Part shown: positions 1,601 to 45,672 of the stretch, piece by piece
Layout of the letters: the number at the start of each line of letters is the position of its first letter
How positions within the stretch are numbered: position 1 is the stretch's first letter
NCBI GenBank assembly: GCA_964399675.1
Contig: CAYNRK010000001.1
Span: 137,221 to 201,220 of the forward strand
Length of the DNA stretch: 64,000 nt
Direction of reading: 5' to 3'
Source of the DNA: an uncultured Gammaproteobacteria bacterium
GTDB lineage: Bacteria > Patescibacteriota > Patescibacteriia > UBA9934 > GWF2-40-263
Notes under the pieces: model-generated
Told to the model about the DNA's origin: nothing
What the model saw: the letters and a program-made list of their open reading frames with translations, nothing else
Database searches by the model: none
Position numbers and translations under genes: made by a program

Positions 1601-2239
1601 TTAGGCGGCATAGGCCAGACGTTCTGGTTGACCCATGCGGATCCAGGTTTCGCGCGTTACGCGAACCTTGCAGAGTTGATCCTTGATTCGACAGTGCACG
1701 GGGCCATCAACACCGGTCTTGTCTGCAGGACAAATGCAACTGGCTATACGCACTGCATCAGGCAGTTGGCCAAAGCGGATCATTTGCATGTTATGCCGAC
1801 GACCAGTCTTGATTGCCTTGTGATTGGTCGTGGTTCCCAGGATGTTCTTGTCCTGGTGAGTTGCCAGAAGGCGGCTGTAGAGTTCGTCGCCAATTGGAAG
1901 TCCTGAAGTAGCGAATCGATATTCAGGAATCACCAGAAAAGTCCCAAGCTCATACCACATTGCACCTTGAGAATCTTCAGCAAGTTCCCACAAGACAATG
2001 CAGCCAATCACGCGGTTGCTAACCCCCCTTTTCTCCCCCCTTGAAAAGGGGGGAGAACTTCGGTCGAGTGCAATGATGACACGGTTGTCAAGTACCGTAG
2101 GTTCAAGATCATCTCGCGTCTTGGTGAGTAGGTGAGCTTCTGCGCGCGTGATTACTTCGACTTGTGTGTACCAAGATTCATCAAGTGTACACAAATCATG
2201 GCCGGACACGTAAACGATCTCCGGCTTCGGAATTGGCAT
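1601..2239 (-). CDS. GNAT-family N-acetyltransferase-like protein with a Cys-rich C-terminal region. It carries an in-frame PPF repeat insertion (SPPFSRGEKRG).
   Basis: GNAT-like core RVIGCIVLW...WYELGTFLVIPEYRFATSGLPIGDELYSRLL. AGGAG ribosome-binding site 7 nt before ATG at 2239. Repeat at 2021-2056. Confidence 0.5.
   Translation of the reverse strand: MPIPKPEIVYVSGHDLCTLDESWYTQVEVITRAEAHLLTKTRDDLEPTVLDNRVIIALDRSSPPFSRGEKRGVSNRVIGCIVLWELAEDSQGAMWYELGTFLVIPEYRFATSGLPIGDELYSRLLATHQDKNILGTTTNHKAIKTGRRHNMQMIRFGQLPDAVRIASCICPADKTGVDGPVHCRIKDQLCKVRVTRETWIRMGQPERLAYAA
2021..2056 (-). repeat. PPF palindromic repeat element, copy 1 (reverse orientation), in-frame inside the GNAT gene.
   Basis: taacccccctttTctccccccttgaaaaggggggag is the reverse complement of the CCCCCCTTTTCAAGGGGGG.CAAAAGGGGGGTTA consensus seen at five other sites. 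Confidence 0.8.
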
Positions 2240-2263
2240 TTCTCTCTCCTTAAAGTTACACAA

Positions 2264-2296
2264 ACAAAACAACCGCCTGCGGGCGGTTGTTTTGTC
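2264..2296. terminator. Strong hairpin aacaaccgcc-tgc-gggcggttgtttt, with an A-run on one side and a T-run on the other, in a divergent intergenic region.
   Basis: 9-bp perfect stem. Member of a recurring AACAACC..GGTTGTTTTG hairpin family (also 6101-6133 and 12075-12098). Confidence 0.5.
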
Positions 2297-2405
2297 GTAC
2301 GAAATTCGTGATCAAAAAAACCTACCCAGCGGGCAATGTCTTTTTGTCTTTCTTTGTTGCAAGAATGAATCTCATACGCTATCTTTGTATCAATTGCATG
2401 AGCTT

Positions 2406-3293
2406 ATGTCAATAAAAGAAATCAAAGAAAAAATTTGGGAAATCAAAACCAACCAACCTGGAAAAACAGTTTGCATTCTTGGTGGCACACACGGAAACGA
2501 ACTAACCGGTATTGAGGTTGTAAAAAAATTTGTTAGCGAGTTTGAAAACGAAAAGCTCAAACTAGAAACCGGTAGATTAATTTTTGCACTTTCAAATCCA
2601 AAAGCAATTGAACGCAACACAAGAGGTGCTGAAGATCACCAAGATTTAAATCGAAGTTTTTTTCTTGATGTTATTGAAAGGCCAGGCAATGAAACTTACG
2701 AAGACAAGCGCGCAAAAGAGTTGGCTCCTTTTTTAAAACAGTCAGACATCTCAATAGACATTCATTCAACAAACAAACCTTCTGAGCCAATGTTTTGTAT
2801 GAAGGACGATCAAGAACACAAAGAAATTGCAAAATGGTTTGAATGCCCGAGAATTCTAGATGATCCAAAATTGGTGATCGGTCAGGGGGTCAATGTAACA
2901 ACGGATGAATATGTAGATAATAATGGTGGAATTGGTATTGCGTATGAATCCGGGGCTGTGAGCGATCTTTCAAAAATCGGAGAAGTTTACAAAAGCATTT
3001 TAAACATTTTTCGATCTGAAAAAATGATCAACGACGGGGTTCTTGTTAAAGATCCTCAAGTAAAATGGGAATCATTTCAAATGGAACAAGCAATTCTTTT
3101 GGATAAAAGAGGGTTCAGTTTTGCAAAGGACCGAGGTGTTAGTTCGTTTGAACCATTTTCCAAAGGTGATCTGCTCGGGTATTATGGACAAGACGAACTG
3201 ATCGCTCAATTTGATGGAGTTATCATGTTTCCCAAAGTAAAAGAATTATTCAAAATCGGAAAGCCAGTTGTATATTTAGCAAAACAAAAATGA
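2406..3293 (+). CDS. Succinylglutamate desuccinylase/aspartoacylase (AstE/AspA, M14-like) family zinc hydrolase.
   Basis: ILGGTHGNELTG zinc-binding HGNE motif near the N-terminus, with the later H and E ligands. Start chosen at MSIKEIK; the ORF track extends to 2292. Confidence 0.6.
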   Translation: MSIKEIKEKIWEIKTNQPGKTVCILGGTHGNELTGIEVVKKFVSEFENEKLKLETGRLIFALSNPKAIERNTRGAEDHQDLNRSFFLDVIERPGNETYEDKRAKELAPFLKQSDISIDIHSTNKPSEPMFCMKDDQEHKEIAKWFECPRILDDPKLVIGQGVNVTTDEYVDNNGGIGIAYESGAVSDLSKIGEVYKSILNIFRSEKMINDGVLVKDPQVKWESFQMEQAILLDKRGFSFAKDRGVSSFEPFSKGDLLGYYGQDELIAQFDGVIMFPKVKELFKIGKPVVYLAKQK

Positions 3294-4564
3294 TTATGCA
3301 CTATTCAAAACAATTCGGAAAAACAAACAAGGAAGCACCGCATGATGCGGATTCCATAAACGCACGCTTGCTAACACAAGCCGGTTTTATAAACCAGACA
3401 ATGGCTGGAGTGTTTTCTTATCTACCACTTGGCTTGCGTGTTCTTAACAAAATTCAAAACATTGTTCGTGAGGAAATGAATGCGCTTGGTGCAAGTGAGA
3501 TTTACATGCCAGCACTTCATCCAAAAGATTTGTATGACAAAACAAACAGGTGGGACAAGATTGATGTGATATTTAAATTAGAGGGACATGGAAAAAAAGA
3601 ATACGCACTGGGCTCCACGCACGAGGAAGTTGTTACACCTTTGGTAAAACAGTACGTGAAGTCATACAAAGATTTGCCTTTGTCGGTTTATCAAATTCAA
3701 GACAAGTTTCGAAATGAACCGCGTGCAAAGTCAGGTCTGCTTCGCGGAAGGGAATTCTCAATGAAAGATCTTTACAGTTTTCATTTGGATGAGAAAGATT
3801 TTAATGATTTTTATGAGAAGTCTAAAGGAGCATACTTGAATGTGTTTAAGCGATGTGGTTTGGAAGCACTTGTTGTAGAAGCTGATGGTGGAGTGTTCTC
3901 AAAGTTCTCACATGAGTTTCAAGTTGAAACACCAAACGGCGAAGATATTATTTTTACTTGCAAGTGTGGTTTTGCGCAAAATAAGGAAATTGCAAAAGTT
4001 AAAGATGGAGATGATTGCCCTTCATGTAAAAAAGGAAAAGTTCAAGAAACAAAATCAATTGAGGTTGGAAATATTTTCCCTTTAAAAACCAGATTCTCTG
4101 AAGCGTTTGGTTTTAAAGTAAATGGATCTGACGGAAAGCTGGTTGATATTTTAATGGGGTGTTATGGAATTGGACCATCTCGTGTTATGGGTTCAATTGT
4201 TGAAGTTCACTCTGATGAGAATGGAATGATCTGGCCAAAGTCAGTAGCTCCAGCGCATGTGCATTTGGTTTCTCTTGCCAGCAAGGATTCTAAAGTTGTC
4301 AATAAGATTACAAAAGTGTGCGAAGGACTGCATAACGATTTAGAAGCTGCTGGTGTGGAAGTTTTATGGGACGACCGCGAGGACGTCTCCGCAGGCGCAA
4401 AGTTTGCTGACGCAGATTTAATTGGAATTCCAGTGAGGCTTGTTGTATCCGAGAAAACGTTGAAAGAAGATTCGGTGGAATGGAAAGAACGGAGTGAAAA
4501 AGATAAGCGGCTTGTTAAGTTAACGGATGTTATCGAGGAGGCAAAAGAGTTTATTAGCAGCTAA
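3290..4564 (+). CDS. proS: Prolyl-tRNA synthetase. Short form lacking the editing insertion, with a Cys-cluster insertion.
   Basis: Class II motifs: motif 2 FRNEPRAKSGLLRGREFSMKDLYSFH, and the GCYGIGPSR motif 3 region. The anticodon-binding C-terminus is present. Confidence 0.9.
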   Translation: MIMHYSKQFGKTNKEAPHDADSINARLLTQAGFINQTMAGVFSYLPLGLRVLNKIQNIVREEMNALGASEIYMPALHPKDLYDKTNRWDKIDVIFKLEGHGKKEYALGSTHEEVVTPLVKQYVKSYKDLPLSVYQIQDKFRNEPRAKSGLLRGREFSMKDLYSFHLDEKDFNDFYEKSKGAYLNVFKRCGLEALVVEADGGVFSKFSHEFQVETPNGEDIIFTCKCGFAQNKEIAKVKDGDDCPSCKKGKVQETKSIEVGNIFPLKTRFSEAFGFKVNGSDGKLVDILMGCYGIGPSRVMGSIVEVHSDENGMIWPKSVAPAHVHLVSLASKDSKVVNKITKVCEGLHNDLEAAGVEVLWDDREDVSAGAKFADADLIGIPVRLVVSEKTLKEDSVEWKERSEKDKRLVKLTDVIEEAKEFISS

Positions 4565-4565
4565 T

Positions 4566-4640
4566 CCTTGCGTCTTTGCGAGGAGGCCCGTTTGACGGGC
4601 CGACGAAGCAATCTCCGTACAGGAGGTTGTTTTGTTTTTT
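4566..4640. repeat. GC-rich intergenic palindromic element related to the TGTCAT family.
   Basis: It contains ggcccgtttgacgggccgacgaagcaatc. The hairpin ggcccgtYWgacgggcc and the cgaagcaatc block recur at 16340, 23556 and 62941. Confidence 0.5.
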
Positions 4641-4686
4641 TGAAAAGAAAGAACCGATCGTAAGACCGGTAGTGTGGACGAGAGGT

Positions 4687-5877
4687 CTACTCAACACCCT
4701 CTCTTTTTTTGGGCCCTTCGACATCGATGATAGAGCCTCCCGGAAGCCCGACCTCCGGGAGACGATCCCTTCGAACGAGGGTGGGCTTAACCCAGACGGT
4801 TTTTTCAGCGGTCGGGTCGTTGCCTTTGCCCCGAGGTCTACGCCAATGCGCACGTCGCCAATGAGGAGCAACTTCCCCACCTGAAGCTGATGCTTTGCCC
4901 TCGAGGGCGTCCCATTCAGCTTGGGTGAGTCGAAATCGATTACGGACGACGGTTATGTCGGCACCTGTCGTTATCGCCTTCGGGTCGATTGTTTCCACCT
5001 TCGCGCTTTTCACGGCTGTGGCATGTCGGCTCTTGGGTTGAAGCGAGGCAAGGTACTGACAAAGACTCGCAACGATTCGGAAAACACCTTGTGAGCAGCG
5101 TATTGCTTCGAGCCTTTTTTCGTCGAGATCAACACCTGAGGAGAGCTTGCGGTTTGAGAGCCAATCTGCGCTTTCAACGACTCTCGTGTTATCGGTTGCG
5201 CCGAAATGGAGTCTCGTTGGGGCTCTTGTCTTGTATCGACGGATAGTTGCCAACAACGTTCGGCCCGCTTTTGAGAGGCGTTTTTTTCGAATCGACTTTG
5301 CTATAGCCCGAAACTTTGCCTCGGGTATCATCTGGAAGCTAGCTTTTGGCGGCCCATACGCGCTGATGAGTGTAAACCACCCATCATCTTCGAATTCAAG
5401 TCGACACACGACAATACAATCGCAGCTGAAATTATCGTCGATAAGAAGCGGTTCTTCTAGCGTGATCGCAAACGAATCAAATGGCCAAAGAACCTCTGAC
5501 CAGGAGAGTGTGTGCAGAGAGGTGCCCCGAAAGATGCTTGAGACTTCTCTGTTAAGGTGGAATACTTTTCTTGAAGACTGGGTCCACCCAAAAAGCGCCA
5601 ATGCGTCATAGTCTTCGGGGCTCATGTGTTCGTTCAACGTGTCGGAATAAAAGAAGCGACTCTTGTCGAAGTCTGTTTCCGGTCTGGTGCGAAGGAGAAA
5701 CTTACGAAAGGCTCGCCAGTTCCTTACAGGTCCGCTTTTTCGAGTTAGCTTATCTGGAAGATTTTGACCCACTACTGTCTGGCTAAGCCCAGTGAAGCGC
5801 GCTTCCTGCTCCCAAGTTTGGAGCACCTGATCGATTCTGGTGATAGGAATTTTGTATCCCGACACTTTGCACCCCAC
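4687..5877 (-). CDS. Hypothetical protein on a high-GC island (about 56% GC). GTG start.
   Basis: Long ORF in a GC-rich segment. No recognisable motif. Several overlapping antisense ORFs are GC artefacts. Confidence 0.45.
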   Translation of the reverse strand: MGCKVSGYKIPITRIDQVLQTWEQEARFTGLSQTVVGQNLPDKLTRKSGPVRNWRAFRKFLLRTRPETDFDKSRFFYSDTLNEHMSPEDYDALALFGWTQSSRKVFHLNREVSSIFRGTSLHTLSWSEVLWPFDSFAITLEEPLLIDDNFSCDCIVVCRLEFEDDGWFTLISAYGPPKASFQMIPEAKFRAIAKSIRKKRLSKAGRTLLATIRRYKTRAPTRLHFGATDNTRVVESADWLSNRKLSSGVDLDEKRLEAIRCSQGVFRIVASLCQYLASLQPKSRHATAVKSAKVETIDPKAITTGADITVVRNRFRLTQAEWDALEGKASASGGEVAPHWRRAHWRRPRGKGNDPTAEKTVWVKPTLVRRDRLPEVGLPGGSIIDVEGPKKREGVE

Positions 5878-6100
5878 TCTTGAAAGGAACGCAAGATATC
5901 AATTTAAGACCATTATTGGTATCTTGTCAAGTCATAAACAACCATTGACAAACACCCAAAAACAAGCAACAATACTCAAGTATGCAACAACCTTGCTACC
6001 TAATTACAGATATGAAATTCGCCGGACAAGTTTCTCCGGCTAATTTTCGTTTCTCGGGTAGCAAAGTGTTGATGTAATATTTTTCTTAGATATCAATACT

Positions 6101-6133
6101 AAAACAACCCGGGAAACCGGGTTGTTTTGTTGT
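6101..6133. terminator. Hairpin aaaacaacccgggaaaccgggttgttttg.
   Basis: Stem cccgg/ccggg with flanking AACAACC/GGTTGTT extension and a T-run. Confidence 0.5.
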
Positions 6134-6226
6134 GTAAAAGCAACATCAATAACTCAATGAGCTCAAACGGATCGTGATCGAACTGATCCGGTTGGTTTGA
6201 GCTCGCTAAATCTAAGCCGGCGTCGG

Positions 6227-6250
6227 ACCCAGGCTAAAGCCTGGGGCTAC
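6227..6250 (+). repeat. GPSL element copy (acccaggctaaagcctggggctac), intergenic.
   Basis: Matches the 25-mer cgcccaggctaaagcctggggctac found inside truB and rpsE with a single base difference. Confidence 0.75.
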
Positions 6251-6266
6251 TGCAACAGGAGATCAA

Positions 6267-7439
6267 ATGTCAGCTAGGAGAATCTACTACACTTTCTCAG
6301 CACTGATGTGTTTGGGAATGGGAGCGACTGTAACGGTTTACGCACCGTTCCTGCTTTCGATTGGCCTGACACTTGGAGAGGTGGCTTTGGTCAACTCAGT
6401 CTTCTGGGCAGTCATGATCTTGGCCGAGCTACCAACCGGAATGCTCGCTGACGGAAGATCCCGTGCGTGGTCACTCAAGGTTGGTGTTGTGCTGCAGTCG
6501 ATCGGGGCTGTTGTGTATCTAAGTGCTGTTGGTTTTTGGACAGCTGCTCTTGCAGAAGCAATTGTTGCTGTTGGCATGGCGTTTCTTTCAGGGGCGCAAT
6601 CCGCCTGGATCGCAGACGCGCTTACAAGGGAAGGCAAGTTCGATGACCTAAGGCATGTGTACGCAACCGAGCTCTTGATTCGCACGCCAATGTTTCTGGT
6701 GGGCGGAGCTATTGGAGCGCTTTTGGCACTAGTGTCGTATCGTCTGATCTGGGTGCCCCTGATTGTCATGGGAATTGTTACCGCACTTACGGCACACAGA
6801 TTCATGAACGGCCAAGGTGAACCGCTTGAACAAGTAACGGAAAAGGAAGCCTTGCTTTTGAGTCTCAGACATCTTCGCTCAAGCCGTGCGCTAAAGTGGG
6901 TGATCGCAACAATGATTGTGTTTGGATGTGTTGTATCCTTTAACCACTTTTGGGCGCCGTTTTTTGAGCCAAAGGTTGGTACACTCGGACTCTCATGGGT
7001 TTGGGCAATCATCTACCTTTCATTCATCCCATCTGGGTGGATGGTAAGAAAACTCGGAATCGGTGCCGGACAAGAAGGGAAGTACATTGTACTCTCGATT
7101 CTTATGAGTGGTCTTGGGCTTATGCTGATCGGTGTGACCGACGTGCTTGTTGGATCGCTTGTGATAGCCATGTTCCATGAGTTTGGTAGAGGCATGTTCC
7201 AACCGCTCACAGATTCGTTTGTGCAGCATCGGGTCAAGAGTGCGTATCGCGCAACGTTTGGATCACTTCAATCGTTTCTTGGAAAGATCGGCTTTGCTGT
7301 GGTGCCATTTGTAGTATGGCTCCTCATTCTTGGAAAGCCTGACACGCCCGAGACCATTACAAAAGTCTGGGTAGTGTGTGGTGCGATCATGGTGGTTGGC
7401 TCTCTTGCGCTATTCGTGCTTCGGCCGAAAAAGAACTGA
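6267..7439 (+). CDS. MFS-type transporter (about 12 TM helices). High GC (about 55%).
   Basis: Hydrophobic helices throughout. LAELPTGMLADGRSR-like loop 2-3 motif typical of MFS. Confidence 0.6.
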   Translation: MSARRIYYTFSALMCLGMGATVTVYAPFLLSIGLTLGEVALVNSVFWAVMILAELPTGMLADGRSRAWSLKVGVVLQSIGAVVYLSAVGFWTAALAEAIVAVGMAFLSGAQSAWIADALTREGKFDDLRHVYATELLIRTPMFLVGGAIGALLALVSYRLIWVPLIVMGIVTALTAHRFMNGQGEPLEQVTEKEALLLSLRHLRSSRALKWVIATMIVFGCVVSFNHFWAPFFEPKVGTLGLSWVWAIIYLSFIPSGWMVRKLGIGAGQEGKYIVLSILMSGLGLMLIGVTDVLVGSLVIAMFHEFGRGMFQPLTDSFVQHRVKSAYRATFGSLQSFLGKIGFAVVPFVVWLLILGKPDTPETITKVWVVCGAIMVVGSLALFVLRPKKN

Positions 7440-7493
7440 ACGCATCTTCGGGTGCGTTCTTTCAAATAGAAAGGATCGCCTTTTAGAAGACGA

Positions 7494-8132
7494 TCAGGCG
7501 CTTGATCTGCTCAAGCGTAGAGAGTTGCCTTTGCAGGCAGCGATCATGCGGGCGCGAGTTCGCTTGACCCAGCGATCCGCTTTTGCTTTTGTGGGAAAAG
7601 CGGCAAGCAGTACTTCGGTAAACCGATTTCCTGTCTTTGGCTCACCATCAGGCCGGATAAGGCAGGTTCGATCTGGCGACTCGTACTTGGGGTCAGGGAA
7701 CAGGGGGCCGAAGTTGGACCAGCTGACTTGGATCAAGTCTTCTTTGAAGGTAAGGTTGCTGTAACCTTCTTCATCAGGTGTTACGCTGAATCCGAGCCTG
7801 TCTGCTGAGCGTTCGATGTGTTTACCGATGCGCTCTGTATCTACACAGACCGATGTGCCCACAGGGATGAAGCGGAACGTGTAACCGTTCATTGTGAACG
7901 AATGTTCAGCCGAAGCTGGGCCAACGTGCACAACAGGCAAATCATGCTCTTCACGCAAGCTGCCTGACGTGTAGTCGTCAATGGTCCATGTTGGAACACA
8001 CACCATGCCGACCCACGCTTTTGCGGTCTTGCGCGCAAGACGCGGTTTGGTAACGCGACGGTGATACATCGCCCTTGCCATAGCAAGGTGCACCTCAAGA
8101 CCTTCGTCACGATCCTTAGGTTTAGTAGGCAT
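7494..8132 (-). CDS. Hypothetical protein, high GC.
   Basis: ORF with an AAGGGGGTG ribosome-binding site before ATG at 8132. No family motif recognised. Confidence 0.45.
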   Translation of the reverse strand: MPTKPKDRDEGLEVHLAMARAMYHRRVTKPRLARKTAKAWVGMVCVPTWTIDDYTSGSLREEHDLPVVHVGPASAEHSFTMNGYTFRFIPVGTSVCVDTERIGKHIERSADRLGFSVTPDEEGYSNLTFKEDLIQVSWSNFGPLFPDPKYESPDRTCLIRPDGEPKTGNRFTEVLLAAFPTKAKADRWVKRTRARMIAACKGNSLRLSRSSA

Positions 8133-11977: not shown

Positions 11978-12054
11978 TGGTGGACCCGACCGGATTCGAA
12001 CCGGTAATTCTCGGTGCTAACGCGAACGGGGTTACCAATTACCCCCACGGGCCC
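11978..12054 (-). tRNA. tRNA-like sequence. The acceptor stem with a G3:U70 pair (Ala-like), the D-arm, the T-arm GGTTCGAATCC and a CCA end are canonical. The anticodon arm is aberrant, so this is possibly a pseudo-tRNA or an integration-site remnant.
   Basis: Minus-strand read GGGCCCGTGGGGGTAATTGGTAACCCCGTTCGCGTTAGCACCGAGAATTACCGGTTCGAATCCGGTCGGGTCCACCA. The anticodon stem TTCGC/CCGAG has a C-C mismatch, and the loop GTTAGCA has a non-purine at position 37. Confidence 0.4.
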
Positions 12055-12098: not shown

Positions 12099-12183
12099 CG
12101 TCTTTTGTTAGCACCGAGATAGACCCGTGTGGATCCCCACTCGCTTATAGAAGATTGTAGCAACAAAATCGTGTTTTGTCAAA
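12099..12183 (+). repeat. About 85-bp direct repeat, copy A, upstream of the TylF-like methyltransferase gene.
   Basis: The sequence ...cttatagaagattgtagcaacaaaatcgtgttttgtcaaac is identical to 13166-13206. The left part gttagcaccgagat is an inverted copy of tRNA-like nt 12009-12021. Confidence 0.7.
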
Positions 12184-12250
12184 CTGATTCAAGAGAATTG
12201 ATTTAGCGAGAAAAATTGAAAAACAAATTTGAGAACGATACAATAGGTTT

Positions 12251-13000
12251 ATGAAAAACTACAGATATACTGCCCTGCAAAGGGTTGGCAAAAATATTTA
12301 CCGCAAGTTTTTTCCAGTTCCAAAGTCTCCGTGGACTGCTGGACATGTAGAAGATATTTGCAAAGTTAATCTCGTGCCTCCTGAAAAGCTCGTGGAGTTT
12401 TTTAAGGGAGCCATCAAAAAACTTCGTCATTTAAAAGAAGATGACATTGGTGATTATCTTGAGTTTGGGGTATTCAATGGAAATTCTATTGGGAGCATGC
12501 ATATAGCGAAAAAAAGTATGGGTGAAACATCAATGCGCCTCTTTGGGTTTGATGCCTTTGAAGGATTGCCTGCTGGTGCAGAGAATGAAGATGATGGTGT
12601 GTGGAAGAAAGGATTTTATTCATGTTCATTTGAAGAAATGAAAGAATGTCTTCGACGAAGAGGGGTTGATCCAGAAGATATTACTTGGGTATGTGGTTGG
12701 TATGATTCAATGCTTACAAAAGAGACTGCCAAAAAGTATAAGTTGGATAATCTCGGGATTGTTTTTGTTGATTGCGACACCTACAGTTCATCAAAGTCAG
12801 CTCTTGATTTTATTGGTCCGCTCATTACCAAACCTGTGATTATTTGTTTTGATGATTGGAAGCTCAATAATCTTGATCTAAAAGGAATGGGTGAATACAA
12901 ATCTTTTAATGAATTCTTAGATTTAAATTCTCACCTAAAGGCCGAGGAGATAAAATCCTGCAATCGAAAATCAAAATCGTTTCTTGTAACTCTGAAGTGA
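12251..13000 (+). CDS. Class I SAM-dependent O-methyltransferase, TylF/MycF (macrocin-O-MT) family-like.
   Basis: LEFGVFNGNS (Gly-rich SAM loop) and VFVDCDTYSS...ICFDDW acidic motifs typical of the TylF family. Confidence 0.55.
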   Translation: MKNYRYTALQRVGKNIYRKFFPVPKSPWTAGHVEDICKVNLVPPEKLVEFFKGAIKKLRHLKEDDIGDYLEFGVFNGNSIGSMHIAKKSMGETSMRLFGFDAFEGLPAGAENEDDGVWKKGFYSCSFEEMKECLRRRGVDPEDITWVCGWYDSMLTKETAKKYKLDNLGIVFVDCDTYSSSKSALDFIGPLITKPVIICFDDWKLNNLDLKGMGEYKSFNEFLDLNSHLKAEEIKSCNRKSKSFLVTLK

Positions 13001-13121
13001 GATTAGTCAAACCAAACTAACCCCTCCGGAACAATCCTAACGATCGTTAGGATTGTTCCGGAGAGTATTGAAGCAGTTCTTAATCAAAAACTCCCCACCG
13101 CAATAAACGAAAGGGAGCTTT

Positions 13122-13206
13122 TTGTTGGCACCAAGATTTCGATCCGTGTGGACCCAACTTGCTTATAGAAGATTGTAGCAACAAAATCGTGTTTTGTCAA
13201 ACAGTT
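13122..13206 (+). repeat. About 85-bp direct repeat, copy B, flanking the other side of the methyltransferase gene and abutting the truB 3' end.
   Basis: About 85% identical to 12099-12183, including an identical 41-bp core. Confidence 0.7.
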
Positions 13207-16462: not shown

Positions 16463-17401
16463 ATGAACACTCAAAACGTAACCATAATCGGTTCTGGTCC
16501 GGCAGGGTATACTGCTGCCATTTATTGCGCGCGAGCTGAGCTTGCGCCGCTTTTGTTTGAAGGTCGTCAGCTTGGTGGTCAGCCAGGTGGCCAACTCATG
16601 CTTACAACAGAGGTTGAAAATTTTCCTGGGTTTCCAGATGGGCTAATGGGGCCTGAGATAATGGAAAAGTTTAAAAAGCAAGCTGAGCGATTTGGAACAA
16701 AAATTATCACAGACGATATTGTTGAGGTTGATTTTTCCGCACGTCCGTTTGTACTCAAAACCAGTGATCAAGAATTCAAGTCACAGACAGTGATAATCTG
16801 CACAGGGGCTCAAGCAATGTGGCTTGGTGTGCCTGGCGAAGAAAAGTATAAAGGGAATGGTGTTTCAGCTTGTGCCACTTGTGATGGATTCTTTTTTAAA
16901 GATAAACAGGTGGTTATTGTTGGTGGTGGTGATGCAGCGATGGAAGAGGCAAATTTTCTCACCAAGTTTGCAAGTAAGGTTACTGTAATGGTCAGACGCG
17001 ATGAACTTCGAGCTTCAAAGATTATGCAAAAGCGTGCAATGGACAACGAGAAGATTGAGTTTGTTTGGAACACAGAAGTACAAGAAGTTCTGGGTGATGA
17101 GCAAAAAATGACTGGCGTGAAACTACTTAACAACAAAACAAACGAAACTTCAGAGTTTTCAGCAGACGGACTTTTTGTAGCTATTGGTCACAAGCCAAAT
17201 ACGGACATTTTTAAAGGCCAGCTTGATCTGGATAAAAAAGGATATATAACAGTTGAACCTGGAACAACCAAAACCAGCATAGAAGGAGTATTTGCAGGAG
17301 GCGATGTGATCGATTATAAATATCGCCAAGCAATAACAGCCGCTGGAACCGGATGCATGGCAGCACTGGACGCAGAACGTTGGCTGAGTTCAAGGGGATA
17401 A
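16463..17401 (+). CDS. trxB: Thioredoxin reductase.
   Basis: [17 protein letters not shown] motif, CATCDGFFF redox-active CxxC, and [17 protein letters not shown] motif. The ORF-track N-terminal extension overlaps the repeat element. Confidence 0.9.
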
Positions 17402-17411: not shown

Positions 17412-17450
17412 TCCCCCCTTTTCAAGGGGGGATTAAGGGGGGTTAGCATA
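17412..17450 (+). repeat. PPF element copy, intergenic, between trxB and the high-GC lipoprotein gene.
   Basis: ttcccccctttTcaaggggggattaaggggggttagcataa is nearly identical to 45633-45675. Confidence 0.8.
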
Positions 17451-17463
17451 ATTGCTAATTGAC

Positions 17464-20346: not shown

Positions 20347-22827
20347 ATGCCATACAATCATTTAGAAATTGAAAAAAAGTGGCAAGATAAATGGGAAGAC
20401 TCAGGTCTCTTTCATGCCAAAGATAATTCAGACAAGCAAAAGTTTTACTGTTTGATTGAATTTCCATATCCATCAGGTGTTGGACTTCATATTGGTCATT
20501 TGCGCAGCAACACAGCAATGGACATAATTGCTCGCAAACGCCGAATGGAAGGATTTAATGTTTTGTATCCAATTGGTTGGGATGCGTTTGGACTTCCAAC
20601 AGAAAACTACGCAATCAAAACTGGTCGCAAACCACAAGATGTTACAAAAGAAAATGTTGCAACTTTTAAGCAACAACTCCAGTCAATTGGTTTTTCTTTT
20701 GATTGGTCTCGAGAAATCAACACAACTGATCCGGATTATTACAAATGGACGCAGTGGATGTTTTTGGAGTTTTACAAAGCCGGCTTGGCTTACAAAGACA
20801 AGGTACGAATTAATTGGTGTTTGTCTTGCAAGATTGGTTTGGCTAATGAGGAAGTGGTTGAAGGTAAGTGTGAGCGTTGTGGAGGGGAGATTGAAAAGCG
20901 CGACAAAGAGCAATGGATGATTGCAATTACAAAGTACGCTGATCGTTTGCTCGAAGATTTGGAAACCGTTGACTACTTGGACAAGATTAAAACTCAGCAA
21001 GTAAATTGGATTGGAAAAAGTGAGGGGGCTGTTGTGAAATTTGAAGTTCTCCCCCCTTTTCAAGGGGGGACAAAAGGGGGGTTATCAGTTGGCAAAGAGC
21101 TCGAAGTTTTCACAACTCGCCCCGATACTTTGTTCGGAGCAACCTACATGGTTCTCGCACCTGAGCACCCTTTAGTGGATCAGATTACAACCGATGAGCA
21201 ACGCGTAGCTGTTGAACAATACGTAAAAGAAGCAAAAGCGCAGACAGACATTGATCGACAAAATATTGAAAAAGAAAAGACGGGGATATTTACTGGTGCT
21301 TATGCAATTAATCCAGTTAACGAGGAGGAGATTCCAATTTGGGTAGCTGACTATGTGATGATGGGTTATGGAACAGGAGCCATCATGGCAGTTCCAGCTC
21401 ATGATGAAAGAGACTCTGAGTTTGCGAAGAAGTTCGGTCAAAAAGTTATAAAGGTTATTGCAGGCGAAACGATAGGAAAAGAAGTTTATACAGGAGACGG
21501 TAAACTTATCAATTCAAGTTTCCTTAACGGTTTATTGGTTTCGGAAGCTAAAGAAGCGATAATTGAATGGCTTGAGGAAAATGGAAAAGGAAAGCGTTCA
21601 ACAAGTTACAAACTCCGTGATTGGGTTTTTTCTCGTCAAAGATATTGGGGAGAACCTATACCTCTTGTTTTTTGTGAACAATGTGCAAAACAAGAGGTAA
21701 ATTCCAAATCACAAATCACAAATTCCAGAAATGCAGGATGGGTTCCAGTTGAGGATTTGCCAGTTGAGCTTCCTGAAGTTGAAAAGTATGAACCAACTGA
21801 TACAGGCGAATCACCACTTGCTGCAATTGAAGATTGGGTGAACACAACTTGTCCAAAATGTAAGGGTCCTGCAAAACGAGAAACAGACACAATGCCAAAT
21901 TGGGCTGGATCAAGCTGGTACTTTTTGGCTTACATTATGAAAGGCATTAGCGAGAATTACCAATTTTCAATAACCAAATACCAATCTCAATTGAAAAAAT
22001 GGATGCCGGTTGATTGGTACAACGGTGGAATGGAACACACGGTTCTTCATCTTTTATATTCTCGATTTTGGAATAAGTTTTTGTTTGACCAAGGTCATGT
22101 GCCAACCAGTGAACCTTATGCAAAACGCACAAGCCATGGATTAATTTTGGCAGAGGATGGATCAAAGATGTCAAAGTCAAAGGGCAATGTTGTAAATCCA
22201 GATGAGTTGGTAACTGAGTACGGCGCTGATGCTGTGCGACTCTATCAAATGTTCATGGGGCCATTTTCAGAGCCAGTGCCATGGAGTATGAACGGCTTGA
22301 TTGGAATGCGACGATTTTTGGAAAAAGCCACAAACCTTTCTGGTCTCGTTAAAGACACTGAATCCAAAGACGTTACAAAGTCTCTTCATCAAACAATTAG
22401 AAAAGTTACAAACGATATTGAAAAGATGCGGTTCAACACAGCTGTTTCGCAGATGATGATTTTTGTGAATCTTGTAAAAGAGCAGGGGAGTATTACAAAA
22501 GAAAGTCTTGTAACATTTTTGACAATCCTGTGTCCATTTGCGCCCCATCTTACAAACGAGCTTTATGAATCTTTGGGTGGAAAAGAATTTTTGGAAACAT
22601 TAAGTTGGCCAGAGTTTGACGAAAAGCTTGCAAAGGAAGAGTTGGTTGAAGTTGCTGTGCAGATAAATGGAAAAGTTCGAAGTTCAATTATGATCGCGCC
22701 AGAGGCTGATGAAGAAGCTGCAAAAGAATTAGCACTTGCAGACGAAAATGTTATTAAGCATCTGGACGGAAAAGAAATCAAAAAAGTAATTTACGTTCAG
22801 GGGAGAATTTTAAACCTTGTTGTCTAG
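20347..22827 (+). CDS. leuS: Leucyl-tRNA synthetase. It carries an in-frame 13-aa PPF-element insertion (LPPFQGGTKGGLS) at the entry to the CP1 editing domain.
   Basis: HIGH (PYPSGVGLHIGH), KMSKS, and editing domain TTRPDTLFGATYMVLAPEHP. Confidence 0.95.
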   Translation: MPYNHLEIEKKWQDKWEDSGLFHAKDNSDKQKFYCLIEFPYPSGVGLHIGHLRSNTAMDIIARKRRMEGFNVLYPIGWDAFGLPTENYAIKTGRKPQDVTKENVATFKQQLQSIGFSFDWSREINTTDPDYYKWTQWMFLEFYKAGLAYKDKVRINWCLSCKIGLANEEVVEGKCERCGGEIEKRDKEQWMIAITKYADRLLEDLETVDYLDKIKTQQVNWIGKSEGAVVKFEVLPPFQGGTKGGLSVGKELEVFTTRPDTLFGATYMVLAPEHPLVDQITTDEQRVAVEQYVKEAKAQTDIDRQNIEKEKTGIFTGAYAINPVNEEEIPIWVADYVMMGYGTGAIMAVPAHDERDSEFAKKFGQKVIKVIAGETIGKEVYTGDGKLINSSFLNGLLVSEAKEAIIEWLEENGKGKRSTSYKLRDWVFSRQRYWGEPIPLVFCEQCAKQEVNSKSQITNSRNAGWVPVEDLPVELPEVEKYEPTDTGESPLAAIEDWVNTTCPKCKGPAKRETDTMPNWAGSSWYFLAYIMKGISENYQFSITKYQSQLKKWMPVDWYNGGMEHTVLHLLYSRFWNKFLFDQGHVPTSEPYAKRTSHGLILAEDGSKMSKSKGNVVNPDELVTEYGADAVRLYQMFMGPFSEPVPWSMNGLIGMRRFLEKATNLSGLVKDTESKDVTKSLHQTIRKVTNDIEKMRFNTAVSQMMIFVNLVKEQGSITKESLVTFLTILCPFAPHLTNELYESLGGKEFLETLSWPEFDEKLAKEELVEVAVQINGKVRSSIMIAPEADEEAAKELALADENVIKHLDGKEIKKVIYVQGRILNLVV
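21051..21086 (+). repeat. PPF element copy inside leuS (in-frame).
   Basis: ccccccttttcaaggggggacaaaaggggggtta. Confidence 0.85.
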
Positions 22828-29095: not shown

Positions 29096-29122
29096 GGGCG
29101 TTTCTTTCTTTTGCCCGATTGG

Positions 29123-30199: not shown

Positions 30200-30263
30200 A
30201 TTGTCATGTGCATACTTTTATGATTGCACAAAAGTCTGCACACGAGAAGAAGAAAGAAAGGGT

Positions 30264-30296
30264 GTGAGGCGGCAGACAGCCCGTCTGCCGCCTCAC
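30264..30296 (-). terminator. Perfect 14-bp inverted repeat gtgaggcggcagac-agccc-gtctgccgcctcac. It is the terminator of the high-GC minus-strand operon and the left island boundary.
   Basis: 14-bp perfect stem overlapping the stop codon, followed on the minus strand by a U-rich tract. Confidence 0.6.
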
Positions 30297-31123
30297 GTCG
30301 TTGTTGAGTTGCCAAGCCACCAGGTTGACCGGGCAATCATGCCCAGCTCGCCTGTGTCTAGCTTGTAGTAGGGATTGAGATCGGTTGCCTTGCCGCACGA
30401 ATGTACGGGCATGCCAACCCTTGCGAAGTGGTCGACGACCTGATCGTCACCCAAGATGAGCTTTTGGTACGCACCGCGCCAGACCTTGCGGTCGGTAGCG
30501 CGGTCGGTGACCTTGACATTGATTGTCATGATGCCTGTTGTTGGGTCAAAGCGTGGGGTGCGTGCGTCGTTGACAGGGGTGCCGTCGAGTTCAGCTTGCC
30601 AGACAACAGTTTTCCCAACACGACATCGATCAAGGTAGCCTTGTCCGATGAAGTCCATGAGAAACGCTCCGTCTTTTGCCAGCGGATCGATCATGCCGCG
30701 CGTGATGCGCAGCAGGAGATCCGGATCAACAACATCACCGAAGGAGTTGCCAAGCAAGATACTCGCATCGAAGCGTTCATTAGTGCGCCATGTGGTGAGA
30801 TCTCCAATGTGGAGTTGGACACGTGGATCTTGGCCGTGGCTTTTGAGAGCCTTGGCCACGCACTTTGGCGAAAGATCTACACCAACGATTCGTTGAACAC
30901 CGGACCACAGCAGAGCGTTGATGTGTCTGCCCGTGCCAAAACAGGGCAGGAAGACGCTCCTGGGTACGTGGCCAATAAGTCGGATGGCAGTTCCGACTTC
31001 AGCCCAGGCAAGCGCGCTGTTGTCATGGACATCTCTATCGAGCTGTTCCATCACGTCATAGTGACGCGCAACATCGAACTGGGCCGGAGGTTCTGTTCTG
31101 TGTTGATGAGCGGTAGCTTGCAT
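30293..31123 (-). CDS. Class I SAM-dependent methyltransferase (high GC, about 60%).
   Basis: LPCFGTGRH...VGVDLS SAM-binding motif I and post-I acidic residue. Its start overlaps the stop of the upstream gene (TGATG). Confidence 0.65.
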   Translation of the reverse strand: MQATAHQHRTEPPAQFDVARHYDVMEQLDRDVHDNSALAWAEVGTAIRLIGHVPRSVFLPCFGTGRHINALLWSGVQRIVGVDLSPKCVAKALKSHGQDPRVQLHIGDLTTWRTNERFDASILLGNSFGDVVDPDLLLRITRGMIDPLAKDGAFLMDFIGQGYLDRCRVGKTVVWQAELDGTPVNDARTPRFDPTTGIMTINVKVTDRATDRKVWRGAYQKLILGDDQVVDHFARVGMPVHSCGKATDLNPYYKLDTGELGMIARSTWWLGNSTTT

Positions 31124-33051
31124 CACTCCCCTTGGTAGATGACCGGACCCTCTTCAGCGTCGTCAGCGCCGTGGATTCGGAAGCTACCGGTTCGCAGGGT
31201 CATGGTGGATCCAACAAGATCGACATGACCATCCGTTTCCGCGTCCCCTGAGAAGAGGAAGAACGGAGTCAGACGCGTGCGCGCACCACGATCGAGCCGG
31301 ACGTTGCCATCACTGTCGCGGTAGGCCACGGTGTAGCGATGCGAAGCAATGATGTGCTGGGCCACAACCGGGTGGGGGAGTCTGGCTCGCACAGCAAGCT
31401 CTTTTTCCCATTTCATCTGATTCTGAGCCTGGCTGCCAAGCGAAAGGCTGCGTGCACCCCAGGACTTGTTGTCGCCGTCCCAGGCACCGAACTTGGTCAG
31501 CCAGAGATGTCGCTCGTCTCTCACTTGTGGGAGAACACGATCGAGCAGACGCGTCTCTGCCACACAGTTATGCAATGTGGTGAGCGCTGCGGGATCGCGG
31601 CTTTTGATCCAGTGCATCACGTTCGGGTGCCAGAGCGCGGCCATGAGAGCCTTGTTTTCCAGACAGTGCCAGAGCGGGTTCATCATGAAGGTATCTTGGC
31701 TGTCCCAGGCGACCAGTTGATCCAGTCCTCCTGTGTTGACGAAGTTGTCGAAGTAGCCGAAGCGGAAGACAACTGTGTTCGGACCGAGCGTTTGAGGGAA
31801 ACCCTCGTCGCTGCCGTGAACGAATTCGTCGAACCCGAGCGCTTTGAGACGCCCCAGGAAGTCGCTGTTCCATGTGGCCTTGGCTGCATCAGACATGTTG
31901 TCGTGTGGCCACCAGCCTTTCCGTGTCAGCTTTGAGGGGCCGCCGCGCTGGCGAACCGCATCGTGGATCTGTTGAAGGGGCGTGTCGAACCAGATCTCGG
32001 CATCAAGGCCGCGCTCGCGAAGAGCAGCAACGAAGACGGCCTGATCCCACACGTACTCAGCCCATTCGTTGGTGGCGAACACGATGAGTTTGCGACCATC
32101 CAGTAGACGGACGTAACCGTCCAGCATGGTTGTGTCCAGTCCGTAGCCGAGCTCCATGGCGTGCGACATACCCTGTCCGGCAGGGCAAGATTCGAACTCA
32201 GTGATGACCGGGCGGAGTACGCCAGTCACCGGGTCCTTGACCACTACGATGTCCGGTCGCATGAGCATGACCGGGCCGCCTTGCATGAGTGCGGGAATAC
32301 GATCCGGGCGGCCATGATTGAGGATGTGCTGGACGCCGGGATTGCTTTTGTGCAGCGCATGGATCGCCTTGAATGCGAGTGCAAGCGCTTGCCCAAGCTC
32401 TCCCAACTTGTCCAGGAAGTACGTGGGCAGGGTGAAGGGATCGATGAGCTGGCGCCAGGAGACGCCACTGAGCCCTTTGTACCCAATACCAGTCTTGTTC
32501 ATGCGAACGCGCGCGGCCTCGACCTTGTCGCCGGCCGGTTGATTGACTCGGCGGACATGGGGTCCAGCGGCTTCTGCTTCTTGCCAGCCGTCAACGAGCT
32601 CAGGCTCGATGAGCAGGGCATCAGCCAGGTTGAGGCCATGGCCTCCAACTGTGGGCATGTTCTGGATGTCTACCCAGCGGCGCTCGATCGGATGCTCCAG
32701 GGGGCGACCTCGCCTGCCTTTTGTGTCGGTTCGACTTCCTGTTGTCCAGTCAAAACCGAGCATTGCGAACTTCACCTTCAGCGCGTCCAGGATAGGTCCG
32801 TTCTTGGGCCAGGTATCTGACTGTGCTGGAATGGCTACTCCGTTGTCTGGTAGTGTGCTGCCGCTGAGCACCTTGTTGCGCCATTCCCTTGTGGAGCGCT
32901 TGACACCGGATCCTCTCTCAGGACCACTGAGACCATGCTTGCGTCGCATCTCAAGCACCCTTTCGGGCACCACGACCGTGCTCTGGCCTCGTCGGCGTCT
33001 GGTGTTCCAAGTTGCGCCAGTTGTCTGGGAGGTCCTCGTGACTGAGTGCAT
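31123..33051 (-). CDS. Large protein carrying a glutathionylspermidine-synthase-like (GSP_synth/YgiC-YjfC family) ATP-grasp amide-ligase domain in residues about 250-600. The first ~200 residues are Arg-rich and of unknown function.
   Basis: RPDIVVVKDPVTGVLRPVITEFES (compare YgiC [22 protein letters not shown]), ENKALMAALWHPNVMHW (compare [20 protein letters not shown]), and WLTKFGAWDGDNKSWGA (compare VVKPIFSREGANV). GGAGAAAG ribosome-binding site before ATG at 33051. About 62% GC. Confidence 0.55.
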   Translation of the reverse strand: MHSVTRTSQTTGATWNTRRRRGQSTVVVPERVLEMRRKHGLSGPERGSGVKRSTREWRNKVLSGSTLPDNGVAIPAQSDTWPKNGPILDALKVKFAMLGFDWTTGSRTDTKGRRGRPLEHPIERRWVDIQNMPTVGGHGLNLADALLIEPELVDGWQEAEAAGPHVRRVNQPAGDKVEAARVRMNKTGIGYKGLSGVSWRQLIDPFTLPTYFLDKLGELGQALALAFKAIHALHKSNPGVQHILNHGRPDRIPALMQGGPVMLMRPDIVVVKDPVTGVLRPVITEFESCPAGQGMSHAMELGYGLDTTMLDGYVRLLDGRKLIVFATNEWAEYVWDQAVFVAALRERGLDAEIWFDTPLQQIHDAVRQRGGPSKLTRKGWWPHDNMSDAAKATWNSDFLGRLKALGFDEFVHGSDEGFPQTLGPNTVVFRFGYFDNFVNTGGLDQLVAWDSQDTFMMNPLWHCLENKALMAALWHPNVMHWIKSRDPAALTTLHNCVAETRLLDRVLPQVRDERHLWLTKFGAWDGDNKSWGARSLSLGSQAQNQMKWEKELAVRARLPHPVVAQHIIASHRYTVAYRDSDGNVRLDRGARTRLTPFFLFSGDAETDGHVDLVGSTMTLRTGSFRIHGADDAEEGPVIYQGE

Positions 33052-40852: not shown

Positions 40853-40858
40853 ATCCTT

Positions 40859-40993
40859 TGTCATCCCGAGCGAAGCCGAGGGATCTCGCATATTCGAGAT
40901 TTCTCCACTCGCGGAGCCTGTCCTGAGCGAACGAGGTGAGTCGAATGGGCTCGGTCGAAATGACATTAGTAAACAGGCTCGGTCGAGATGACA
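40859..40993. repeat. TGTCAT-family element, copy 6, with a duplicated right terminus (..gtcgaaatgaca...ggtcgagatgaca).
   Basis: About 90% identical to 16325-16456 over about 110 bp. Confidence 0.75.
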
Positions 40994-43769: not shown

Positions 43770-44298
43770 ATGTCACAACATCACCCAAATCTTGTTCAGG
43801 TTCCCAATCCGGAAACTTAAAAGCATTAGAAATAATCCGCCCACCTTCTTTAAGTTCTTGCATTACCTTTTTTTCAATTCCTTTCATAGAGAAAGGAATT
43901 TGATACAAGAGAATCACATCAACATCAGATAAGTCAGCTTTCCAAAACGATTTCTTTTTGATTTCAATTTTATCCTCAAGTCCCAGTTTTTTTATGTGTC
44001 TTCTGGAAAGTCTTACAAGCCCTGGGTGAACTTCATATCCAACTGCTGATTTTGCTCCTGCCTTAATGGCAGCAACCAGCAACCGACCGTCTCCTGAGCC
44101 CAAGTCCACAACATGATCGGTCTCTTTTATTTTTGCAAGCTTGATCATCCTTTTTACTTTTGCAGGTTCTGTTGCAACATAAGGCGCTCCTCGATTAATG
44201 AGCGGGATCAACATGCCGCCAAACCAATAGAGCACTACTAAAGCCACTATTAAAATGACAAGCAAGAAAAAAAGAAGTAAAAATGTGATAGGATCCAT
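43759..44298 (-). CDS. Membrane-anchored class I SAM-dependent methyltransferase.
   Basis: N-terminal TM helix, then VVDLGSGDGRL SAM motif I. Confidence 0.6.
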   Translation of the reverse strand: MDPITFLLLFFLLVILIVALVVLYWFGGMLIPLINRGAPYVATEPAKVKRMIKLAKIKETDHVVDLGSGDGRLLVAAIKAGAKSAVGYEVHPGLVRLSRRHIKKLGLEDKIEIKKKSFWKADLSDVDVILLYQIPFSMKGIEKKVMQELKEGGRIISNAFKFPDWEPEQDLGDVVTYKK

Positions 44299-44303
44299 AA
44301 AGT

Positions 44304-45341
44304 ATGACTGTTTCAAAAAAGGTATTAGCTCAATATGAGATTGGAAAAGTGAAGTCAGTAAAGCCAGTTGAATCTGGTTTGGTTCATAATACGTTTGCAA
44401 TCAAAACATCTACCGGTGATTATATCATTCAAAAGCTTCATCCCATACTTTCTGATCAAGGAACAGCCAGAGATTTTTTGGCTGTGGCTGAACATCTTGA
44501 AAAGGAAGAATTTTTAGCACCCAAGTGTGTGCTTAGTAAAACAGGGAAAGTTTTAGCTCGTGAAGGAAAAGAGGTTTGGAGAATGCAAACAAAATTGTCA
44601 GGCAACACATACGACGTTATAAAGGATCTTTCAATGCTCAGAGAAGCTGGAAAAATTTATGCGCAGTTTCACAAGACAATGGACCACATGGATTATAAGT
44701 TTAAATCAAAATTGGTTTTGCACGAGACAGAGAAGATTTATAAGAAGTTTTTAAAAATTCTCCCCCTTTTCAAGGGGGAGTTAGAGGGGGTTAGTAATGA
44801 GGTTGAGTTTATAAAAAAAGAATTTCCAAAATATTTTTTGCCAAAAAGTTTGCCGCTTAGAGTAATTCATGGAGATCCAAAAGTATCGAATATTTTGTTT
44901 AAGAAGGTCCCCCCCCTTTTCAAGGGGGGGTTAGGGGGGGTTACCGCTGCTGCAATTATTGATTTGGATACTTGTAGTCGCAGTTCGATTCTGGTTGAGC
45001 TTGGCGATGCGTTTAGATCCTGGTGTGGTAATGAAGAAGATGATCCAAAGAACAGGTTTTGTCTTCGCAAGTTTCGTTCAGCTTGGTCTGGGTATAAAAA
45101 AGGCTCTGATGGGTTTTTAACAGCCAGAGAAAAAAGTTTGATTCCAAAGTGTATTGGTACAATCACACTTGAACTAGCTTGTAGATTTTTAACAGATTAT
45201 TTTGAAGATAGTTATTTTGGTTGGGACTCAAAGCGTTACAAATCCAGAAAAGAACATAACTTGGCGCGATGCCGCGGACAGATAAAAGAGTTTCAAGATT
45301 ATAAAAAAAAGCTTTCGAAAATAAGAAGAGTGGTCAATTGA
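44304..45341 (+). CDS. APH/choline-kinase-like phosphotransferase (protein-kinase-like fold), with two in-frame PPF-element insertions.
   Basis: Catalytic HGDPKVSNILF (HGDxxxxN) and IIDLDTC (DxD). Insertions LPLFKGELEGVS at 44757-44792 and PPLFKGGLGGVT at 44903-44945. Confidence 0.6.
   Translation: MTVSKKVLAQYEIGKVKSVKPVESGLVHNTFAIKTSTGDYIIQKLHPILSDQGTARDFLAVAEHLEKEEFLAPKCVLSKTGKVLAREGKEVWRMQTKLSGNTYDVIKDLSMLREAGKIYAQFHKTMDHMDYKFKSKLVLHETEKIYKKFLKILPLFKGELEGVSNEVEFIKKEFPKYFLPKSLPLRVIHGDPKVSNILFKKVPPLFKGGLGGVTAAAIIDLDTCSRSSILVELGDAFRSWCGNEEDDPKNRFCLRKFRSAWSGYKKGSDGFLTAREKSLIPKCIGTITLELACRFLTDYFEDSYFGWDSKRYKSRKEHNLARCRGQIKEFQDYKKKLSKIRRVVN
44757..44792 (+). repeat. PPF element copy (in-frame, phosphotransferase gene), first.
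   Basis: ctcccccttttcaagggggagttagagggggttagt. Confidence 0.8.
44903..44945 (+). repeat. PPF element copy (in-frame, phosphotransferase gene), second.
   Basis: gtcccccccctttTcaagggggggttagggggggttacc. Confidence 0.8.
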
Positions 45342-45374
45342 CATAAAGTTTCCATATGGAAACTTTATGTCAAT
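45337..45374. repeat. 38-bp perfect palindrome attgacataaagtttccat|atggaaactttatgtcaat overlapping the phosphotransferase stop codon.
   Basis: 19+19 perfect dyad symmetry with no mismatches. Confidence 0.8.
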
Positions 45375-45634
45375 GTGTTAGCAAAAACAAAACAACTCCC
45401 GATTGAGAGTCGTTTCTTGTCCACCGAAGCCTCTTGGCGAAGGTGGATACATCTGAATGTTGAGATTTCGTTTCAGGCTTGCAGTGTTACTTTATCCTGT
45501 TCATCAACCTCTTTCCTGTGCAGCTATAGTTCAGATGTCTTCTGTTTGGACTAATCCAGACAGGTATCACGTGATTGCACAAGAGGGAATACTACCATAT
45601 ATAGGCGATTTTGTCAACCCCAAAGAGTCATTTC

Positions 45635-45672
45635 CCCCCTTTTCAAGGGGGGATTAAGGGAGGTTAGCATAA
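45635..45672 (+). repeat. PPF element copy, intergenic, at the left edge of the 45.7-49.4 kb high-GC island.
   Basis: tccccccttttcaaggggggattaagggaggttagcataa. Confidence 0.8.

Follow-up and report, generated by a model that had tools for sequence, protein, structure and literature searches.

The window analysed here is a 64,000-nt stretch of contig CAYNRK010000001.1 from an uncultured bacterium, an Uhrbacteria-like member of the Patescibacteria, and it carries six copies of a short element built from a C-run, a 7-nt loop and two G-runs. We conclude that the six units are probably solo copies of a very small, dispersed, non-autonomous repeat that is associated with a nuclease. The nuclease link is inferred for this genome from others, in which modules of the same family flank genes for DUF559 proteins.

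The element had been described, from the window alone, as a 36-bp palindrome occurring six times, and this count is confirmed: the 17-mer CCCCCTTTTCAAGGGGG has 6 exact copies against 0.10 expected from 100 shuffles (60 times chance), and the portion formed by the G-run, linker, G-run and TTA likewise occurs well beyond its chance expectation. A general scan for C-run/loop/G-run/G-run units revealed no seventh copy in the 64 kb. The consensus of the six units is C5-8/TTTTCAA/G5-7/linker/G5-7/TTA, with the loop TTTTCAA in 6/6 copies, linkers of 3-7 nt, and arms of C5-C8, G5-G7 and G5-G7; the overall unit size is 32-45 nt. The palindrome itself is limited to the C-run/loop/G-run part (17-21 nt); the second G-run, outside it, repeats the first as a mirror image. 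Folding, suggested as a check on the hairpin, does not distinguish the copies from dinucleotide-preserving shuffles (z -0.6 to -2.3, not significant); fold energy is uninformative here because any C-run plus G-run folds. At the Rfam gathering score no family was found in the window and only tRNAs in 16 related loci, and an E-value search of Rfam around copy 6 returned matches at chance level only.

Four copies lie in three genes whose frames remain open throughout, with the peptides that were originally quoted. Copy 1 (2020..2055, minus strand; CT-C6-TTTTCAA-G6-AGAAAA-G6-TTA as read on that strand) is in-frame in an open reading frame (ORF) at 1601..2272(-) and encodes PPFSRGEKRGV. Copy 3 (21049..21084, plus strand; CT-C6-TTTTCAA-G6-ACAAAA-G6-TTA) encodes LPPFQGGTKGGLS in-frame within the leucyl-tRNA synthetase (LeuRS) gene at 20347..22827. 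A single gene for an aminoglycoside phosphotransferase (APH)-type kinase, 44304..45341, hosts both copy 4 (44760..44793, plus strand; CT-C5-TTTTCAA-G5-AG-TTA-GAG5-TTA; peptide LPLFKGELEGVS) and copy 5 (44909..44943, plus strand; C8-TTTTCAA-G7-TTA-G7-TTA; peptide PPLFKGGLGG), again in-frame. The sequence GAAGTTCT stands ahead of copies 1 and 3 and may be native coding sequence. The two intergenic copies, both on the plus strand, have 1 mismatch over 44 nt (ATTTCCCCCCTTTTCAAGGGGGGATTAAGGGGGGTTAGCATAA). Copy 2 (17413..17451; C6-TTTTCAA-G6-ATTAA-G6-TTAGCATAA) begins 12 nt past the stop codon of a thioredoxin-reductase gene (17399-17401), and a terminator-like hairpin (17464-17486) follows 13 nt downstream of it; copy 6 (45631..45672; TTT-C6-TTTTCAA-G6-ATTAA-GGGAGG-TTAGCATAA) has the kinase gene on one side and, on the other, the terminator that serves the convergent gene 45720..47057(-). 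The presence of 4/6 copies in genes is no enrichment, because coding density here is 88-93% (~90%). Separately, GC content is 47-50% in window segments 1-8000, 28000-32000 and 44000-52000 compared with ~40-43% elsewhere; these GC-richer segments contain several ORFs without a Pfam match, and copies 1, 4, 5 and 6 are in or beside them.

Two properties ascribed to the coding copies in the original prediction, a length that is always a multiple of 3 and selection for one reading frame, are not borne out. Measured from where the C-run begins through the last TTA, copies 1 to 6 are 36, 33, 34, 32, 35 and 33 nt long. It is the net gain over orthologues, and that alone, which divides by 3, as it must in any copy persisting within an undamaged gene. 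All three forward frames are represented among the coding copies (PPFSRG, PPFQGG and PLFKG), and no frame bias arises, since the C-run encodes Pro and the G-run Gly in every frame. The intergenic consensus contains TAA and TAG; the coding copies differ from it in linker length or sequence in such a way that the host frame stays open.

Alignment of the host genes with their orthologues shows that 4/4 coding copies are insertions. In LeuRS, copy 3 occupies a variable loop directly ahead of the conserved VFTTRPDT motif, and most of 60 orthologues (all Patescibacteria, mostly Uhrbacteria-like) have no insert between GKSEGAxVxF and VFTTRPDT. Three other LeuRS proteins carry related inserts in this loop: P0008 (PPLTKGGRGG), P0009 (SPLPKGGQRGV) and P0051, in which a whole DUF559 domain, flanked by LPFGEDLGEV-type units, is inserted in-frame. 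P0051 is encoded by a single ORF of 1257 aa (L125, 4772-8545) from a related Patescibacteria organism, with hairpin modules flanking the nuclease domain. The DNA of the LeuRS inserts consists of perfect modules with other loops (C8-TTACCAA-G7-CGA-G7 and C6-TTCCCAA-G6-ACAAA-G6); orthologues with a similar peptide thus have repeat DNA beneath it. In a neighbour-joining tree the four carriers, the window protein included, fall in separate clades, and their nearest relatives lack the insert. On an unrelated metagenome contig (L150), a module stands directly upstream of an apparent VFTTR-coding sequence, as read by eye only. To judge from the alignments, the loop ahead of VFTTRPDT is a general insertion hotspot. 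As separate observations on this loop, orthologues P0026, P0029, P0037 and P0039 have a different repeat-like peptide (SLPRNDA, LLPRNDN, ASPRNDQ), and others have whole domains inserted or fused (alpha/beta hydrolase, NUDIX).

The kinase gives a similar picture. Both inserts are missing from most orthologues, and module-type peptides recur at the same two sites in several lineages, namely P0135 (LPLPKGELEGV), P0122, P0127 (SPPAKGGLGGV), P0134 and P0137/P0140/P0144 (PPPARGGARGGG). Copy 5 sits between the HGDPK..N catalytic loop and the IIDLD motif. In an AlphaFold model of the kinase (mean predicted local distance difference test score, pLDDT, of 95), copy 5 forms a beta-hairpin loop and copy 4 a non-helical stretch between two helices (block mean pLDDT 87), and the two inserts coincide with the two confidence dips of the model. 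The copy 4 variant is also present in unrelated metagenome contigs. For ORF 1601..2272(-), the 11-residue (33-nt) PPFSRGEKRGV is found only in the window protein and is absent from the 13 homologues among the 14 proteins aligned.

Copies within one genome have a common loop, TTTTCAA in all six in the window and TTCCCAA in both copies of L124, with TTACCAA in L123, which points to spread or homogenisation within each genome. This variation also led us to drop mimicry of an anticodon loop (UU-UUC-AA) as a candidate, given that loops differ by genome (TTACCAA, TTCCCAA, TTAAATAA). Taken with the tree and alignments, these sequences indicate that related modules have inserted independently at the same LeuRS and kinase loops in other lineages.

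The element had been presented as a feature of a low-GC genome of the Candidate Phyla Radiation (CPR) type, and it proves to be far wider: the motif with its second G-run occurs at no fewer than 119 loci (≥119) in a species-representative genome set, in many phyla. Among the matches listed, a scope that applies to all locus proportions given below, most loci are cyanobacterial, other hosts being Cellvibrio, Photobacterium, Marinomonas, Chloroflexia, Bacteroidota, Leptospiraceae, Planctomycetes and Patescibacteria; ~85% of copies are intergenic and ~15% lie in ORFs. In cyanobacteria the unit forms inverted pairs within larger palindromes that resemble MITEs (miniature inverted-repeat transposable elements) and do have terminal inverted repeats (TIRs). 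A broader pattern found the motif on 31 metagenome contigs, and a window-specific pattern had no match in the metagenome. Viral contigs gave four matches only, so the element is not mainly phage-borne. A literature search covering the motif, palindromic elements of the Candidate Phyla Radiation, small dispersed repeats (SDRs) and DUF559 returned no description of the element.

Beyond the window, modules are associated with genes for DUF559, to our knowledge a very common family with almost no assigned function. With the DUF559 domain of P0051 as query, stand-alone DUF559 ORFs were found in four motif-anchored loci (L141, L129, L050 and L157), and 4/4 have a module in reverse orientation that overlaps the stop codon or is placed at it. 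For L129, the TAA stop of the DUF559 ORF is the module's own TTA, reversed; a second module, in forward orientation, stands just upstream of the ORF in L141 and L129. A DUF559 profile retrieved 120 proteins from several phyla, nearly all with Pfam PF04480 and PF18741, and in 49/120 the C-terminal end is the module-encoded peptide (IPPTPLEKGG, IPPSPP and the like), whereas control families end in such a peptide in 0/120, 0/120 and 2/72 cases. The association can also be approached from the nuclease side, in the DNA of four genes picked from the 120-protein list: in 3/4 of these DUF559-anchored loci a strict-pattern reverse module starts -18 to +27 nt from the ORF end, and the fourth (L167) has a degenerate module only, ~43 nt downstream. 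L163 has in addition a forward module 8 nt ahead of the DUF559 start codon. The profile matches PDB entry 3hrl best (E 1e-29) and also the homing endonuclease I-Bth0305I (3r3p; E 1.6e-4). Literature mentioning DUF559 contains no link to repeats as far as titles, abstract openings and two text look-ups go.

These observations suggest how the six copies may have arisen. The module is made up of a 5′ pyrimidine arm, a loop of 7 nt, a 3′ purine arm and a short linker, then a mirrored purine arm and TTA, and in other genomes modules of its family bracket, in inverted orientation, a small single-domain nuclease gene of the Vsr-like PD-(D/E)xK type, DUF559. We infer that a DUF559 protein mobilises the module and that the present genome has or once had such a nuclease; copying within a genome would proceed either by the nuclease or by host repair acting on structured DNA. 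In a compact genome most landing sites would be coding, and the genic copies would be the survivors, those in permissive loops, of a net length that is a multiple of 3, and with linker or run-length variants free of the consensus TAA and TAG. The peptide Pro-Pro ... Gly-Gly ... Gly-Gly would then be a by-product of the DNA sequence, and the homopolymer runs would leave the host gene prone to frameshifts. A Pfam scan of 20 window ORFs identified no transposase or nuclease partner.

Several points weigh against this account. The 64-kb window and the adjoining 10 kb on its right are devoid of DUF559 genes, and most of ~150 motif-anchored loci have none within ~4 kb. Because the profile that supplied the DUF559 sample was itself derived from genes adjacent to the motif, the link may hold for one subfamily only. 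The dependence could also run in the other direction, with the module as a landing site for the nuclease gene. For the window copies neither a TIR nor a target-site duplication is definable. Finally, the recurrence of modules in the same loops could reflect an old insertion refreshed by gene conversion, combined with many precise losses.

The anatomy of the module bears on a different explanation. Where the stem extends past the C- and G-runs, the segment after the linker mirrors the 3′ arm (GGGGGAGG...GGAGGGGG, GGGGGAG...GAGGGGG, GGGGGAC...CAGGGGG), and copy 4 is a perfect mirror repeat, GGGGGAG/GAGGGGG. Across copies the test gives 50 mirror-only, 0 direct-only, 35 ambiguous and 12 neither, ruling out an alternative hairpin in which the second G-run is a direct copy; several extension types covary with the mirror arm (AG/GA, AGG/GGA, AGA/AGA, AC/CA), as do the three run lengths with one another (r 0.83, 0.78 and 0.70; 5-5-5 in 92 copies, 6-6-6 in 34). 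Such an arm may allow an intramolecular triple helix, in which the G-rich strand would use a purine motif and the C-rich strand C+GC/TAT. Equally, the full structure may be a two-sided palindrome, C-linker-C-loop-G-linker-G, as found in L150, L164 and L157, of which a solo module represents two thirds.

On the triple-helix reading, or with alternative pairing through the mirror arm, the module might be a structured DNA or RNA element useful to the host, an explanation that is compatible with mobility and that we consider unlikely. Possible roles would be protection of mRNA 3′ ends, control of the translation of a downstream nuclease gene, or, as with NTS and the nuclease Ssn, a DNA mark through which a single-strand nuclease would modulate natural transformation. 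Besides the mirror symmetry and the covariation, it would account for the co-orientation of 6/6 window copies with transcription, the position of copy 2 between stop codon and terminator, and the tendency of intergenic copies elsewhere to lie close to the 3′ ends of genes (80) rather than the 5′ ends (29). Likewise in its favour, L163 and L141 have the final G-run 8-11 nt ahead of the start codon of the nuclease, where a Shine-Dalgarno site would be expected, and the window encodes the competence protein ComEC. Across genomes, however, no orientation bias is seen, with 35 co-oriented and 45 anti-oriented copies at 3′ ends and 8 forward and 9-10 reverse copies in ORFs. Regulators are hard to square with copies inside essential genes, the two-sided palindrome explains the mirror symmetry equally well, and the copies are mutually related, which inflates the covariation counts.

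Variation among strains raises another possibility, which seems to us improbable: copy 5 would act as a phase-variation switch, its C8, G7 and G7 runs slipping and thereby toggling the kinase within the population. This organism is represented by five further assemblies, which share 99.98-100% identity with the window and are too alike to be informative on the presence or absence of modules; the sole indels among them each remove one base from a homopolymer run in copy 5. In L162, C8 becomes C7, the only difference over 20.6 kb, and the kinase is truncated (P0138, 209 aa). In L161 the second G-run goes from G7 to G6, again truncating the kinase (P0128, 271 aa); beyond this, L161 differs by only three substitutions over 20.8 kb, and two of the three fall no more than 40 nt from the altered G-run. 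Copy 5 thus has three alleles across different assemblies. Homopolymer indels are also the commonest assembly and sequencing error, however, and those of copy 5 could be either real slippage or error. Only 1/6 copies varies, copies 2 and 3 being identical in three independent assemblies, and a switch leaves both the intergenic copies and the cross-phylum distribution unexplained.

It is most improbable that the Pro-Pro/Gly-Gly peptide is ancestral and selected, or that the copies are due to chance or assembly: although similar peptides occur at the same positions in a few orthologues, the carriers lie in separate clades among relatives without the peptide, their DNA keeps perfect C- and G-runs at ~66% protein identity, which should randomise synonymous sites, two copies are non-coding, and the copies, 60 times more numerous than chance, are identical in independent assemblies from different samples.

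More broadly, and tentatively, DUF559 proteins and modules of the form C-run/loop/G-run/mirror-G-run may constitute an undescribed nuclease-repeat partnership in Cyanobacteria, Bacteroidota, Chloroflexi, Proteobacteria and Patescibacteria, a third beside REP-RAYT and NTS-Ssn (both compared below), in which triplex-capable or two-register DNA is recognised and spread by the nuclease, even into essential genes such as LeuRS. If this is true, DUF559 acquires a testable substrate in its cognate repeat, and the Pro-Pro/Gly-Gly stretches that terminate many hypothetical proteins, and that also occur within some conserved ones, would be explained as module-encoded. The nuclease, if sequence- or structure-specific, could become a tool like Ssn. 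For small candidate-phylum genomes, the finding shows that loops of essential enzymes can be reshaped by selfish repeats, which also bring in homopolymer runs prone to frameshifts. In annotation, it marks the truncated calls P0128 and P0138 as repeat-driven.

The window holds other features of note. A possible small structured RNA lies at 45389-45585 (-), and the same strand has a site resembling a promoter (45617-45589) and a terminator-like hairpin (45416-45389); the fold of the RNA has a z of -3.5, with 0/200 shuffles folding as well, and it has no Rfam match. Within GC-richer ORFs lacking Pfam matches (45720-49400) there is a direct repeat of ~400 bp with 86% identity (47189-47575 and 48375-48777). 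An 84-nt inverted repeat (89% identity; 12103-12184 and 13120-13202) stands on either side of a TylF-like methyltransferase ORF (12251..13000). The two copies of a 97-nt inverted repeat (99% identity), at 40869-40965 and 63792-63887, lie one between the genes for ribosomal proteins S12 and S7 and the other just past the methionine aminopeptidase gene. ARAGORN calls a tRNA-Ala at 11978-12054 (-) with the anticodon AGC, unusual for bacteria; at the Rfam gathering threshold no tRNA is found in the window.

Rickettsia palindromic elements (RPEs), to which the element was first likened, are ~100-150 bp long, have long palindromic ends and belong to sequence families known only from Rickettsia; we know of no nuclease partner for them. 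The likeness holds in behaviour, since in both cases dispersed palindromic repeats lie in-frame in conserved protein genes, as insertions relative to orthologues that are tolerated as peptide (in model loops in the case of the kinase), and also between genes. It fails in size and make-up: the module has 32-45 nt, a hairpin plus mirror arm, a host among the Patescibacteria, a range over many phyla and a DUF559 link elsewhere. The element therefore behaves like an RPE but belongs to a different, cross-phylum family. Cyanobacterial SDRs (Elhai et al. 2008, Genome Res 18:1484) are reportedly widespread repeats of 21-27 nt, some of them palindromic, found inside genes, MITEs and other repeats. Compared by description, they offer a lead only, in that our motif is mostly cyanobacterial and occurs within larger MITE-like palindromes.

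Systems with a nuclease-type partner come closer. In that of repetitive extragenic palindromes (REPs) and REP-associated tyrosine transposases (RAYTs), also known under the names REPtron and REPIN, short (20-40 nt) hairpin repeats exist in many copies, one small gene of nuclease type has inverted copies on both sides, and the majority of repeats stand alone or in pairs and are non-autonomous (PMC3116915, PMC6006769). Our module is likewise a short imperfect palindrome in many copies, with inverted copies around a nuclease-type gene elsewhere. The partner differs, being a PD-(D/E)xK Vsr-like DUF559 protein and not an HUH Y1 (RAYT) enzyme; an alignment of module copies has no conserved 5′ GTAG; REPs are extragenic, whereas 4/6 window copies and ~15% of those elsewhere lie in genes; and the module has a mirror-repeat third arm. 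That a Vsr-like fold can drive the mobility of its own gene is reported for I-Bth0305I (PMC3239194). The DUF559 profile matches the catalytic domain of this enzyme, which is multidomain and encoded by a group I intron, whereas DUF559 genes are free-standing, encode ~120 aa and are bounded by hairpin modules.

The nearest counterpart in layout is NTS/SRM-Ssn, an arrangement of repeat, nuclease gene and repeat with oriented hairpins of 20-50 nt in many copies and a wide distribution; Ssn belongs to the GIY-YIG family and is characterised by site-specific cutting of single-stranded DNA beside the repeat, and NTS is rarely inside genes (2%) (PMC11893778). DUF559 is Vsr-like (PF04480/PF18741, 3hrl) and not GIY-YIG, and its pairing with the module is seen at the level of sequence. 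In other genomes, although not in the window, our modules similarly flank a small single-domain nuclease gene, and NTS/SRM-Ssn provides the precedent for such a gene flanked by its own hairpin repeat (PMC11893778).

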